IMG/VR virus record: IMGVR_UViG_2695420485_000001
Origin: a virus
Lineage: Duplodnaviria; Heunggongvirae; Uroviricota; Caudoviricetes
Direction: 5' to 3' (one strand)
Length of the DNA: 10,884 nt
Made by a program: the position numbers and the translations under genes. This document shows, one piece after another, positions 5,557 through 10,758 of the stretch (positions are counted from its first letter, which is position 1; the number at the start of each line of letters is the position of its first letter). The notes below the pieces were generated by a model. It saw only the letters and a list, made by a program, of their open reading frames with translations, ran no database searches and was not told the DNA's origin.

Positions 5557-5735
5557 GACGACAGCGACGAAGTTTCACCGACATCATCTGCGAAAACTGC
5601 AAATACCTTCCAACGAAACGCTCCAGAAATAAACGCAAGCCAATCCCAAAAGAATCTGACGTAAAAACCTTCAACTACACGGCTCACCTGTGGGATATCC
5701 GGTGGCTAAGACATCGTGCGAGGAAAACAAGGTGA
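5553..5735 (+). CDS. ninE: Small Cys-containing basic nin protein, 60 aa ([60 protein letters not shown]); best fits NinE by size, NinD not excluded
   Basis: ATG at 5553 overlaps the ninB stop (ATGA). The 60-aa length matches lambda NinE rather than NinD (57 aa); the sequence is recalled from memory, not searched. Confidence 0.7.
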
Positions 5736-5765
5736 TTGACGCGATGATTTATTCGGGGCTATATT
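5736..5765 (+). promoter_or_regulatory. Strong sigma70-like promoter: TTGACG, 18-nt spacer, TATATT
   Basis: -35 at 5736-5741 and -10 at 5760-5765, immediately after the ninE stop, directed rightward toward the inserted module. Confidence 0.5.
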
Positions 5766-5771
5766 CCTCAC

Positions 5772-5848
5772 GCGCCAGCAAAATCTGGCGTCGGGATTAG
5801 CACCCCGGATATCGAAACGGTGCATAACCGCGCTGGCGGTTTTTTTAT
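5772..5848 (+). ncRNA. Candidate short terminated leader or sRNA (~75 nt) from the 5736-5765 promoter, ending at an intrinsic terminator
   Basis: Predicted start near 5772. Internal hairpins cgccag/ctggcg and cggg/cccg. Terminator stem aaccgc (5826-5831) / gcggtt (5836-5841) with loop gctg, followed by seven T. No ORF with a Shine-Dalgarno in the interval. Confidence 0.3.
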
Positions 5849-6010
5849 GCGCTAAGCACAGTCACATTCGCGATTTATGGCGGGCTGTGTGGGGGAGCCG
5901 AAAGGCTCGCCGGATGTTTCGACCGGTAGTGCTAACCCCGCACAGTTCGCCACCACGATGATTAGCACCTGACGGTGGCGAGGTAAAAATTATCGAAACG
6001 CGAGGTCATT

Positions 6011-6688
6011 ATGGCTGTTCAAATTTCTGTCGAAAACCTTTCCCCTGTTACCTATAACCAGATCCCCGTAATTACTACTGAACTGTTGGCTCACCTTTAC
6101 GGAACAAAAATCAAAAACATTTCTGATAACTTTCTGAACAACACGACGCGATTCATGCCCGGAAAGCATTACTTTAAAATTGAAAAAAACGAATTACGCG
6201 AGTTTAAGAACAGACCCGAAACAATCGGGTTAGTTGGTAAAAATGCCCGCGCCCTCATCCTCTGGACAGAACGCGGCGCAGCCCGTCACGCAAAAATGCT
6301 CGAAACCGATCAGGCGTGGGAAGTGTTCGAAAAACTGGAAGACTGCTATTTCAGCCAGTGCGAGAAAAATACTGGCAAACAAGAGAAGAAGCCCAACGGG
6401 CTTTCCGCAAAAGAAACAGACAGCCTTGTATGGCTGTGGGATTATGCCAACCGCTCACAGGCATTGTTCCGTGAGTTGTATCCCGCATTAAAACTGATTC
6501 AGTCTGGCTATTCCGGCATATGCTACGACTACGGTCATGAGTTCTCGTATGTTATTGGAATGGCGAGAGACGTTTTAATTAATCACACACGAGATGTTGA
6601 TATCAATGAGCCAGACGGACCAACGAACCTTCTGGCATGGGAAAGGCTTAAGAACAAAGAGTTGCCGCCTTCACTGCATCGCTACTGA
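6011..6688 (+). CDS. ORF6N (KilA-N-related) domain protein, 225 aa, with an unrecognised C-terminal domain
   Basis: N-terminal ~100 aa fit the ORF6N pattern ([33 protein letters not shown]...[34 protein letters not shown]). GAGGT Shine-Dalgarno 6 nt before the ATG. Followed by its own terminator. Confidence 0.7.
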
Positions 6689-6703
6689 CAATTGACAACT
6701 TAA

Positions 6704-6731
6704 CAAACCCAGCTTCGGCTGGGTTTTTTAT
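6704..6731 (+). terminator. Rho-independent terminator after the ORF6N gene
   Basis: aacccagc ttcg gctgggtt: 8-bp stem, tetraloop, then TTTTTTATT. Confidence 0.75.
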
Positions 6732-6756
6732 TGCTGAATTTTCAATGTGAGAGGAC

Positions 6757-7485
6757 ATGACAATGAATGAGCTGATAAATAGCAATGCCATCAAAATGAC
6801 AAGCATTGAAATCGCTGAGTTGGTGGGAAGTCGTCATGACAAGGTGAAACAATCCATTGAACGACTGGCTGTTCGAGGTGTGATCCGAAATCCCCCAATG
6901 GTGGTTTTCGAAAAAATCAATAACTTAGGATTACTTCGTGGCGTAGAGGCTTACGTTTTTGAGGGCGAACAAGGTAAGCGCGACAGCATTATTGTCGTTG
7001 CCCAGTTGTCGCCGGAATTCACCGCTCGCCTTGTTGACCGCTGGCGAGAACTCGAAGGGGCAACCGCGAAAATACCACAAACCTTTTCTGAGGCATTGCG
7101 CCTTGCGGCCGACCTTGAAGACCAGAAGGCTGAACTGGAGAAACAGCTTGCTCTCGCAGCACCTAAAGTTGAGTTTGCCGATCGAGTTGGCGAGGCCAGC
7201 GGAATTTTGATTGGAAACTTTGCAAAGGTTGTTGGTATTGGTCCAAACAAACTGTTTGCGTGGATGCGCGATCACAAAATCCTTATTGCTTCAGGTGCCC
7301 GGCGCAATGTGCCAATGCAGGAATATATGGATCGCGGCTATTTCACAGTGAAAGAAACAGCGGTCAATACAAATCACGGAATACAGATATCGTTCACCAC
7401 AAAAATCACCGGGCGTGGTCAACAGTGGCTGACAAGAAAGCTGCTAGATAACGGAATGCTTAAAGTAACAGGGGAGGCTGCTTAA
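6757..7485 (+). CDS. Rha-family phage regulatory protein with a KilA-C/ANT-like C-terminal domain (antirepressor or Roi-like), 242 aa
   Basis: N-terminus [30 protein letters not shown] fits the Rha winged-helix pattern; C-terminus [48 protein letters not shown] fits the ANT/KilA-C pattern. GAGAGGA Shine-Dalgarno upstream. Stop overlaps the ninG start (TAATG). Confidence 0.7.
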
Positions 7486-8090
7486 TGGCTAAACCAGCGC
7501 GAAGGAAATGCAAAATCTGTAAGGAATGGTTTCACCCGGCATTCTCAAATCAGTGGTGGTGCAGCCCGGAACACGGAACTAAATTAGCACTCGAACGACG
7601 AAATAAAGAACGCGAAAAGGCGGAAAAAACAGCAGAGAAGAAACGACGACGAGAGGAGCAGAAACAGAAAGATAAAATTAAGATTCGAAAACTCGCCTTA
7701 AAGCCCCGCAGTTACTGGATTAAACAAGCCCAACAAGCCGTAAACGCCTTCGTCAGAGAAAGAGACCGCGACTTACCATGTATCTCGTGCGGAACGCTCA
7801 CGTCTGCTCAGTGGGATGCCGGACATTACCGGACAACTGCTGCGGCACCTCAACTCCGATTTGATGAACGCAATATTCACAAGCAATGCGTGGTGTGCAA
7901 CCAGCACAAAAGCGGAAATCTCGTTCCGTATCGCGTCGAACTGATTAGCCGCATCGGGCAGGAAGCAGTAGAGGAAATCGAATCAAACCATAACCGCTAT
8001 CGCTGGACTGTCGAAGAGTGCAGGGCCATCAAGGCGGAGTATCAACAGAAACTTAAAAAACTGCGAAACAGCAGAAGTGAGGTTGCATGA
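7485..8090 (+). CDS. ninG: NinG (Rap recombination endonuclease), 201 aa
   Basis: [31 protein letters not shown]...CISCG...[11 protein letters not shown], near-identical to lambda NinG as recalled, with the Cys-rich motifs. Confidence 0.9.
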
Positions 8091-9327: not shown

Positions 9328-9402
9328 GGGTCAGTCGTATAAAGGTCATTACGGAAGGCTGTTAACCTTCTTATCGTGGTTCGAGTCCACGCTGTCCCGC
9401 CA
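9328..9402 (+). tRNA. tRNA-like gene, 75 nt, anticodon loop CUGUUAA (GUU, Asn-type); one U-U mismatch in the acceptor stem
   Basis: Manual cloverleaf: acceptor gggtcag/ctgtccc (6 of 7 paired), D-arm gtat-aaaggtca-ttac, anticodon stem gaagg/ccttc, T-arm cgtgg-ttcgagt-ccacg, discriminator G, encoded CCA. Confidence 0.55.
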
Positions 9403-9407
9403 AACAT

Positions 9408-9483
9408 GCTGGTTTAGCTCCAATGGTAGAGCAACTGACTTGTAATCATCAGGTCGCCAGTTCGATTCCGGTAGCCGGCACCA
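9408..9483 (+). tRNA. tRNA-Thr-like gene, 76 nt, anticodon UGU (loop CUUGUAA); weakened anticodon stem and one T-stem mismatch
   Basis: Resembles E. coli tRNA-Thr(UGU) as recalled (GAGCAACTGACTTGTAATCA...AGGTC...CCAGTTCGATTCCGGTAG...CACCA). Acceptor gctggtt/agccggc includes two G-U pairs. Only 3 of 5 anticodon-stem pairs form (tcatc instead of tcagt). Confidence 0.6.
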
Positions 9484-9486
9484 TAT

Positions 9487-9561
9487 GCGGGTACCGTATA
9501 ATGGCTATTACCTCAGCCTTCCAGTCTGATGATGCGGGTTCGATTCCCGCTACCCGCTCCA
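9487..9561 (+). tRNA. tRNA-like gene, 75 nt, anticodon loop CUUCCAG (UCC, Gly-type by manual fold); C at position 8 and a C-U mismatch closing the anticodon stem
   Basis: Perfect 7-bp acceptor gcgggta/tacccgc, D-arm gtat-aatggcta-ttac (same architecture as the first tRNA-like gene), T-arm gcggg-ttcgatt-cccgc, encoded CCA. Confidence 0.5.
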
Positions 9562-9649: not shown

Positions 9650-9874
9650 GTGAAAAAGCTGATGGTGACGATTGGTCCGTTCGAAACAGAAGTTAGTTTT
9701 CGTGTCGTTCAGGGGGAGAGTGTACTTGTTGAAGATGTATTTCATGGAAAATCAACAGGTCCTTATGTAAAAGAATATTTTGTCGACGCCACGGATGAAA
9801 ATATTGAGGTGGTGTACGATTCCGTCAATCACCCTAATTTGATCATTAAGGCAAAATTGAAACCACTTTATTGA
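9650..9874 (+). CDS. Hypothetical small protein, 74 aa
   Basis: AGGAGG at 9640-9645, GTG start at 9650 with short 4-nt spacing; alternative ATG at 9662 is far from the SD. No family recognised. Located between the tRNA cluster and the downstream late region. Confidence 0.5.
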   Translation: MKKLMVTIGPFETEVSFRVVQGESVLVEDVFHGKSTGPYVKEYFVDATDENIEVVYDSVNHPNLIIKAKLKPLY

Positions 9875-9926
9875 TCTGAGCGGGAGCAATCATAAAATAT
9901 CTCTGGGTACCCATAAGGAGATAAAT

Positions 9927-10136
9927 ATGTTTGTTGCTGAAGGGGTAATGGAAGATAAGGACAACAAAGGATGTGTTAAAGGTTGGGCTGTGGTAAGAAA
10001 CTCGCCATGGCATCTTGTTGGGGTTTTTGCGACAGAGGAAGACGCGGAAATGGAAGCAAGAAAGACGGGAGATGAGTACGAGGTTCACTATGGCTCGCAT
10101 CGAACAGGAAGTGATGATTTTGTCTGGGGGGAGTAA
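9927..10136 (+). CDS. Hypothetical small acidic protein, 69 aa
   Basis: Strong AAGGAG Shine-Dalgarno 7 nt before the ATG at 9927. Followed by a terminator. No family recognised. Confidence 0.6.
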   Translation: MFVAEGVMEDKDNKGCVKGWAVVRNSPWHLVGVFATEEDAEMEARKTGDEYEVHYGSHRTGSDDFVWGE

Positions 10137-10169
10137 CAGTCGTTTAACCCCAGAATAATCCCGTAACTG

Positions 10170-10195
10170 AGGTCGCTATTGGCGGCCTTTTTTTG
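10170..10195 (+). terminator. Rho-independent terminator after the two small ORFs
   Basis: ggtcgc tattg gcggcc stem-loop followed by TTTTTTT; near-duplicate of the 9574-9598 terminator and its downstream motif. Confidence 0.7.
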
Positions 10196-10326
10196 TATCC
10201 GCGCCACGCCCGGCGCATATCAACCACAGAGCCTTTCGGGGGTGAGCTTACGGAGTGGTCAGTGTGACTTTCTCTGTGGGCAGATCGCTCCCGGGCGTTG
10301 GCTCACCCACCCAAAGGAACGTCACG

Positions 10327-10758
10327 ATGTTTGGTATTTTTGGTAAAAAAGCCCGCCGAGCGGCAGTGGAAATTAAAAAGTTTGAGAAACGTGATCTGGC
10401 ACAGGCGGTTATTAATGCTGCCTATCTGGTGGCCTATGCAGATGGTGAATGTGAGGCTTCAGAGAAAGCGAAGATCGAGCAGGTCTTGCGTAACCAGCCT
10501 GCGTTGTCCGCGTTTACGTCAGAAATTAATGCGATTAGCGCAACCATTATCGGTCAGCTGGATACGAACTTTAAAACTGGTCGTCGAGCGGCATTGCGTG
10601 AAATTGAAGATGTGAAACACGATACGCGTGAAGCGGAAGATGTGCTGGATGTGGCGGTGGCCATTGCGGAGGCAGACGGCGAAATTGAGCCGGAAGAGCG
10701 CAAGGTGCTGGAAGAGATTGCCGGTGTTCTGGGTCTTCGTCTGGAGAATCACCTGTGA
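10327..10758 (+). CDS. TerB-like (tellurite-resistance TerB family) domain protein, 143 aa
   Basis: From the ATG at 10327 (MFGIFGKKARRAAVEIKK...); the track ORF begins at an upstream alternative start. Two VA-x-ADG-E acidic repeats (LVAYADGECEASEKAKIE and VAIAEADGEIEPEERKVLEEIAGVLG) typical of TerB. Confidence 0.65.
   Translation: MFGIFGKKARRAAVEIKKFEKRDLAQAVINAAYLVAYADGECEASEKAKIEQVLRNQPALSAFTSEINAISATIIGQLDTNFKTGRRAALREIEDVKHDTREAEDVLDVAVAIAEADGEIEPEERKVLEEIAGVLGLRLENHL

Follow-up and report, generated by a model that had tools for sequence, protein, structure and literature searches.

The window, by which we mean the whole stretch of 10,884 nucleotides that was analyzed, is the early-right arm of a lambdoid prophage, with its genes in the order cI, cro, cII, O, P, ren, ninB, ninE, the block examined here (5736–7485), ninG, a NinI-type phosphatase gene, a Q-family antiterminator gene, and tRNA genes. 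The cI-cro segment was 100% identical to that of phage HK97, the immunity region being of the HK97/lambda type, and the part of the window that follows Q and the tRNA genes contains no stx gene. The block has ninE upstream and ninG downstream, where lambda carries ninF in between, and the position that the initial annotation had given it was borne out by both the neighboring genes and the comparison with lambda. All of the features described below are on the plus strand. Both of the ORFs that had been called are present, the first at 6011–6688 (225 amino acids) and the second at 6757–7485 (242 amino acids), as are the proposed terminators, which were found as hairpins with a T-run at 5826–5841 and 6705–6726. 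The coupling of the second ORF to ninG was also confirmed, its stop codon overlapping the ninG start codon (TAATG, 7483–7487). As a whole, the block represents the ant-roi arrangement already known from Stx-type lambdoid phages.

The first ORF is ant. A Pfam search indicated that its product carries an ORF6N domain at residues 12–96, as had been proposed, and a P22_AR_C domain (PF10548) at residues 125–197, the latter with an E-value of 3.7e-25. BLASTP analysis indicated that residues 122–225 are identical to residues 197–300 of P22 Ant at 90 of 104 positions (87%). The C-terminal half, which had been regarded as unassigned and novel and for which a domain search over residues ~110–225 had been suggested, is thus the known C-terminal domain of P22 Ant. 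The P22_AR_N domain was absent from Ant in the Pfam search, with ORF6N in its place. When the C-terminal half alone was used as a tblastn query, 224 phage records matched, P22 included, and the GenBank record of phi24B already describes ant as ORF6N plus P22AR-C. The identical Ant protein is recorded in 58 contigs. In close relatives, residues 82–225 were near-invariant, the variable part being the ORF6N core (residues ~28–80). The Ant alignment is shallow because the 120 homologues listed are all at least ~78% identical, and structure prediction from an alignment of 22 sequences resulted in a mean pLDDT of 42, which is unusable for fold comparison. Sequence and profile searches of the PDB with Ant and Roi yielded no solved-structure relative detectable by sequence.

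Both Ant and Roi fall in PHROG "anti-repressor" families, and the role of antirepressor or regulator that had been guessed agrees with the accepted annotation. In phi24B, ant knockout reduced late pR' expression after norfloxacin treatment to ~30%, a plasmid copy complemented the defect, and superinfection was unchanged by ant deletion (PMC3064807). The C-terminal domain shared with P22 Ant and the phi24B phenotype, which is partial, suggest that Ant may act as an antirepressor by inactivating CI.

The second ORF encodes Roi. Over its full length of 242 amino acids, the product was 83.9% identical to HK022 Roi, which is the match that the initial annotation had proposed to look for. Pfam analysis indicated a strong ANT/KilAC domain in the C-terminal part and an N-terminal Rha match that was sub-threshold (26.7 bits against a cut-off of 29.9), so that the earlier Rha/KilA-C assignment stands firmly for the latter element and weakly for the former. 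HK022 Roi exhibits the same Pfam pattern of weak Rha and KilAC, and its gene is at the same position of the nin region, directly after ninF. As for the translation start of roi, ATG 6763 is probably to be favored over 6757, because GAGG at 6751–6754 lies 8 nt upstream of it and both the HK022 protein start (MNELI) and PGAP agree. According to Clerget and Boccard (1996), HK022 Roi reportedly recognizes a site inside the roi gene and influences lytic growth in an IHF-dependent manner. A passage of PMC3430580, citing earlier work, likewise describes HK022 Roi as a DNA-binding protein affecting lytic growth.

The leader upstream of ant, at 5736–6010, begins with a promoter-like site, TTGACG-18-TATATT at 5736–5765, which is sigma-70-like with 10 of 12 positions matching and has putative activity. 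In the scanned region, two promoter-like sites were found against 3.2 expected, so the match alone is not above chance, and what stands of the strong promoter that had been claimed is a sigma-70-like site. The site was near-invariant in an alignment of 30 related leaders. In phage P1, the P1c4 (P51b) promoter is in the same place, the distance from the end of the -10 element to a1 being 32 nt in both. A search for signs of Gifsy-type SOS control found no LexA box near the cassette promoter. Next to the promoter-like site is a short RNA of the IsrK or c4-a1b1 type (5772–5846), which consists of a 5' hairpin, the target sites a1 (TTAGCAC, 5797–5803) and b1 (TCGAAAC, 5812–5818), and an intrinsic terminator with its stem at 5826–5841 and a U-run. 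The Rfam scan matched isrK (RF01394) at 5772–5846 with 76.6 bits against a cut-off of 50, and c4-a1b1 (RF03163) at 5759–5811 with 50.6 bits against a cut-off of 46.7.

At 5873–5957 (core at ~5877–5953) lies a C4-type antisense RNA, which was identified by its Rfam match, its fold, and compensatory stem changes. The C4 model (RF01695) was matched over its full length (1–87) with 75.1 bits against a cut-off of 45 and an E-value of 1.3e-13, and folding analysis indicated a long closing stem and two hairpins with a minimum free energy of -49.1 kcal/mol and a z of -7.08. The segment b' (GUUUCGA, 5916–5922) is in the loop of hairpin 2 and the segment a' (GUGCUAA, 5929–5935) in a single-stranded joint, and the 3' CCACC is invariant, P1 included. 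Each of the two segments has an exact 7-nt complement both upstream, in a1 and b1 inside the short terminated RNA, and downstream, in a2 (TTAGCAC, 5962–5968), which is 5 nt past the C4 match, and b2 (TCGAAAC, 5993–5999). The end of b2 is 2 nt before the Shine-Dalgarno sequence of ant (GAGG, 6002–6005) and 11 nt before its ATG (6011), so that b2 adjoins the Shine-Dalgarno sequence without overlap; in other alleles, the GGA of the Shine-Dalgarno sequence falls within b2. The ORF list of the window holds no ORF between b2 and ant. A 31-codon ORF (5878–5973) overlaps C4, has no evident Shine-Dalgarno sequence, and stops 38 nt upstream of the ant start codon; as an equivalent of Gifsy-1 orf45 or P1 icd it was rejected, because its length (14 to >47 codons) and frame vary between alleles.

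The description of this region as a short terminated leader was therefore right as to the terminator and missed the actual regulatory content, a predicted C4/IsrK RNA switch. The PGAP annotation also leaves the leader RNAs unmarked. Phage JLK-2012 has a leader of 100% identity to the present one, and records of APSE phages already annotate C4, isrK, a', and b' (PMC7313666).

The origin of the block was evident from a side-by-side alignment with lambda and HK022. The left junction (5731–5739) is GTGATTGAC, that is, the ninE stop codon plus the first three ninF codons, after which the identity stops, and the -35 TTGAC of the promoter-like site derives from ninF. Identity resumes at the last ninF codons (TCAATGT, 6742), just before roi, and this right junction (6742–6756) is a remnant of the ninF 3' end (TCAATGT...GAGG) that supplies the roi ribosome-binding site. 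Between the junctions, the cassette ends in the intrinsic terminator at 6705–6733, with a 9-bp stem (6705–6726) followed by a T-run, which is identical in phi24B and VT2-Sakai. HK022 has the order ninE-ninF-roi without ant. Therefore, from both junctions and the HK022 arrangement, we conclude by comparison of the sequences that a c4-ant cassette of ~1 kb (~5740–6741) took the place of the ninF body in a backbone that resembled HK022 and already carried roi. The statement that ninF had been replaced was thus literally right, whereas the single self-contained two-gene module that had been proposed is not what was inserted: only c4-ant was, and roi, which HK022 has without ant, is a separate resident. 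Furthermore, the identities of the two proteins assort independently, being 95% for Ant and 88% for Roi with phi24B, and 73% and 99%, respectively, with VT2-Sakai.

The block is also widespread. The 1750-bp sequence matched 310 phage records, mostly of Stx1 and Stx2 phages in which the genes are annotated as ant, Roi, and NinG, and of 5426 complete E. coli genomes, 1681 carried it, the median among these being two places. The novelty that had been suggested does not hold, as the C-terminal domain of Ant is known and the module is ubiquitous with its roles described, either of which the initial annotation had named as refuting it.

To evaluate the C4 pairings beyond this locus, we compared 80 IMG/VR loci encoding Ant relatives, 78 of which have a C4 of the same type. 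Seven a'/b' combinations were present among the 78, and in each of them a1, a', and a2 match one another. The same is true of b1, b', and b2, where the largest departure is a wobble or a mismatch at one end. As an example, GGCGT/ACGCC in one allele corresponds to GGCAT/ATGCC in another, the change being made at all three places. The a and b alleles were found to be reassorted independently. Self-pairing runs were 6–9 nt long, mostly 7, against mostly 5 nt or less for non-self pairs, which reach 6–7 nt where alleles are shared or near-identical. In the 30-leader alignment, 99.6–100% of cells pair, as compared with 35–45% when the partners were slid, and ten pairs exhibit compensatory changes on both sides, including three each in a1:a' and a':a2. 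Two cassettes in one isolate genome were observed in three genomes of the IMG/VR sample, with different alleles in two and the same allele in one, which is too few to conclude from.

A wider search, in which species-representative genomes were scanned with a pattern and then with our own covariance model, extended this to other Enterobacterales. The loose genome pattern gave 80 loci, 34 of them without C4 and probably chance matches, and 46 IsrK-plus-C4 leaders, which come from Enterobacter, Klebsiella, Kluyvera, Erwinia, Proteus, Morganella, and others. In 44 of the 46, the complements are exact both upstream and downstream of C4. Together, the 46 have 16 a' alleles and 38 b' alleles, and the last letters of b2 are usually GGA, ~10 nt ahead of the following ORF. 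As side observations, the C4 leaders of these other taxa precede differing cargo (Rha, Bro-N, KilA-N, Icd-like, and a family of ~150 amino acids that has no annotation), and many of the chromosomal loci found in this way look P4-like.

Taken together, it is most likely that the block consists of two known lambdoid accessory units side by side, a C4/IsrK-controlled ant cassette and roi. The cassette comprises the putative promoter, the IsrK-type terminated small RNA with a1 and b1, the C4-type RNA, a2, b2, ant, and the terminator. The C4 structure, the four complementary sites, their placement beside the ant start, and their co-evolution were computed here, and from homology and this covariation we infer a C4 mechanism as follows. 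In the lysogen, the local promoter would supply C4, which would pair with a2 and b2 and block ant translation, by analogy with P1/P7 immI, and the pairing may also cause premature termination. With less confidence, we suppose that competition for C4, either by the abundant terminated a1/b1 RNA or by a1 and b1 within long transcripts, could relieve the repression. On induction, antiterminated transcription from pR under N would pass both terminators and produce more ant mRNA; in lambda, N-modified pR transcription reads through terminators during induction. Ant, with its ORF6N and P22 Ant C-terminal domains, may then help lift CI repression, whereas roi lies outside the cassette, its product being a predicted DNA-binding protein of the Rha/KilAC type whose translation would be linked to that of ninG. 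The repression of ant by C4 in P1/P7 is summarized in PMC12197685, and processing of the C4 precursor by RNase P is ascribed to Hartmann et al (1995) where that work is cited in PMC11143913.

The proteins themselves might act in a different manner from that proposed, in that Ant, Roi, or both could be DNA-binding regulators or exclusion factors instead of antirepressors, with phage or host promoters or incoming phages as targets. ORF6N, Rha, and KilAC are all predicted DNA-binding modules, HK022 Roi is described in this way in the passage of PMC3430580 mentioned above, and C4 leaders elsewhere drive varied cargo (Rha, Bro-N, KilA-N, and Icd-like). In addition, the induction defect of the phi24B ant deletion is only partial, and CI binding by Ant is putative (PMC3064807). 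However, the C-terminal domain is 87% identical to that of P22 Ant, a biochemically established antirepressor that inactivates not only P22 C2 but also lambda CI (Susskind & Botstein, as cited in PMC3064807), and the C4 system of P1 controls a bona fide antirepressor. This possibility is therefore considered unlikely.

The cassette could also be switched as isrK is in Gifsy-1, where the supply of IsrK in trans led to a more than 100-fold increase in anrP translation, which the authors explained by an alternative intramolecular structure and a coupled small ORF (PMC4825925). Applied here, such action would mean that the read-through mRNA is inactive, that IsrK opens its fold, and that a small ORF is coupled to ant, with C4 antisense pairing playing no part. 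The strong match to the IsrK model and the 31-codon ORF overlapping C4 are consistent with this, as is the experimental support from Gifsy-1 itself (PMC4825925). However, that ORF lacks an evident Shine-Dalgarno sequence, stops well short of the ant ATG, and varies in length and frame across alleles. Furthermore, selection clearly keeps the C4 loops complementary to both pairs of sites, which the Gifsy-1 model does not need. We consider Gifsy-1-type action instead of C4 pairing quite unlikely, although the two models may each describe part of one system. The same work bears on the C4 mechanism, in which the decoy or "sponge" step is uncertain, because the Gifsy-1 authors favor a structural switch and observed no reduction of the IsrK effect when the downstream RNA was co-expressed (PMC4825925). 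That the block is a self-contained two-gene module with a new C-terminal domain used in phage–phage conflict is very improbable, since, although the genes are adjacent, both belong to PHROG "anti-repressor" families, and neither product has a detectable solved-structure relative, the C-terminus is P22_AR_C, already annotated in the phi24B record, HK022 has roi but no ant, the identities of the two products vary independently of each other among phages, and the block recurs in the hundreds of phage records and E. coli genomes counted above.

The C4/IsrK-controlled cassette next to roi accordingly remains the preferred reading, and its variation across loci raises a further, tentative idea, of which we are doubtful, that the C4 recognition segments, with at least seven combinations among the ant cassettes of E. 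coli, form a combinatorial, fast-evolving address code. If this were true, every lambdoid prophage in a poly-lysogen, and every P4-like satellite, would keep a private antirepressor switch, and a shared a or b allele would lead to cross-repression via C4 or cross-activation via an IsrK-type decoy, which would add an RNA layer to prophage–prophage cross-talk in E. coli rich in Stx phages. The idea is new only in its scale and its network reading, as P1 and P7 are already known to be hetero-immune through changes in their loops, and so are P4 and phiR73. The breadth of the loop polymorphism is in itself a modest side observation.

In practical terms, the novelty flagged at the outset matters little, as Ant is an antirepressor that has already been catalogued, and Stx prophages and their relatives carry the module as a rule. 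What the analysis adds is a clean annotation, in which a nin-region ant is placed behind a predicted P1-type C4/IsrK switch that genome annotation pipelines leave unmarked. With C4 loops being highly polymorphic, work on the induction of Stx prophages or on their cross-talk should heed this RNA layer.

Among known systems, the Stx phages phi24B, VT2-Sakai, 933W, and Min27 likewise have ant-roi between ninE and ninG, and the present prophage differs in its HK97/lambda-type immunity region and in having no stx after Q and the tRNA genes in the window. P22 Ant shares the C-terminal 104 residues, whereas its N-terminus is P22_AR_N in place of ORF6N, and the mnt, arc, and sar control of P22 immI (mnt-arc-ant, sar RNA) is absent here. 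In satellite phage P4, the CI RNA with seqA and seqC is a processed structured RNA between two complementary sites, as C4 is predicted to be here; the P4 RNA acts by transcription termination and controls replication genes. The P4 CI RNA is also mentioned in PMC4825925, the report on Gifsy-1, whose isrK-orf45(STnc1160)-anrP-isrJ locus resembles the present one in its IsrK-family terminated small RNA, read-through into a structured RNA, and antirepressor-like gene. It differs in orf45, which has no conserved equivalent here, in isrJ, which had no match here in the Rfam scan, and in the Q-type antiterminator, which is upstream there and downstream here.

The immI region of P1 has the same order of promoter, a1, b1, C4, a2, b2, and first gene, with nearly equal spacings. 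The C4 fold of P1/P7 is the same, with b' in the loop of hairpin 2, a' in the joint, and CCACC at the 3' end, and there are two sites on each side of C4, the last of which adjoins the ribosome-binding site; b2 ends 10 nt before the icd ATG in P1 and 11 nt before the ant ATG here. The site sequences differ from those of P1 with matching changes in C4, as they do between P1 and P7. In P1, an icd ORF is coupled to ant, whereas ant follows directly here, although icd-like ORFs are present after C4 in some other loci. Furthermore, P1 is a plasmid prophage, in which the KilAC-type Ant1/2 is controlled and C1-type operators, none of which was identified here, are present, whereas the present cassette controls an ORF6N plus P22_AR_C protein in a lambdoid nin region under pR/N read-through. 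The ant-roi block, the P22 Ant domain, and the type of C4/IsrK switch are thus all already known from these systems.

In the alignment of Ant (6011-6688) with its relatives, the variable, mosaic stretch was found to be the ORF6N core, at approximately residues 28-80, and residues 82-225 were almost unchanged within the family. If any part of Ant determines target specificity, this would be the N-terminal domain and not the C-terminal half. The nearest complete-genome match, from E. coli TB354, had a block identity of 99.4%, and in it (2228-2951 of that locus) ant is intact and roi is annotated as frameshifted (pseudogene). In some relatives (IMG/VR loci L041, L084, and L077-L083), ant has upstream of it either another leader type or a second, truncated ORF6N gene; in these arrangements, the ant cassettes are tandem or partly duplicated. 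The E. coli genome matches in two joined pieces are likewise annotated 'Ant | ORF6N'.

A 31-codon ORF overlapping the C4 RNA (5878-5973) is reminiscent of orf45 of the Salmonella Gifsy-1 isrK-anrP locus. This ORF was inconstant between the leader alleles, ranging from 14 to >47 codons with shifts of frame, and it lacks an evident SD.

On other Enterobacterales chromosomes, the most frequent cargo of IsrK/C4 leaders was a family of ~150-aa proteins (Kluyvera georgiana locus L093, 5485-5952, and ~25 others among L089-L168), which is characterized by the pattern MATIPTQxHxLLxVPFxxxTDFTxL, had zero matches in Pfam and NCBIfam, and has an HTH_35 gene as its downstream neighbour. Upstream in the Kluyvera georgiana locus are UvrD/PD-(D/E)XK and multiubiquitin/E1-like genes, and the region appears to be a P4-like satellite's defence hotspot.

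Downstream of Q in the window (9328-9561 and 9650-10758), Rfam called three tRNA-like genes and ARAGORN two (Asn-GTT and Gly-TCC), followed by two small ORFs of PHROG-unknown function and a TerB-domain ORF (10327-10758); no stx gene was found downstream of Q within the window. On the minus strand downstream of cI (346-1391), the position of rexA/rexB in lambda is taken by two ORFs of 216 and 135 aa, which had no match in Pfam and were assigned to PHROG families 5820 and 26809 (function unknown). The cI-cro immunity segment (1676-2700) was 100% identical to that of phage HK97, whereas the nin region is similar to that of Stx phages, and this combination is an ordinary lambdoid mosaic.
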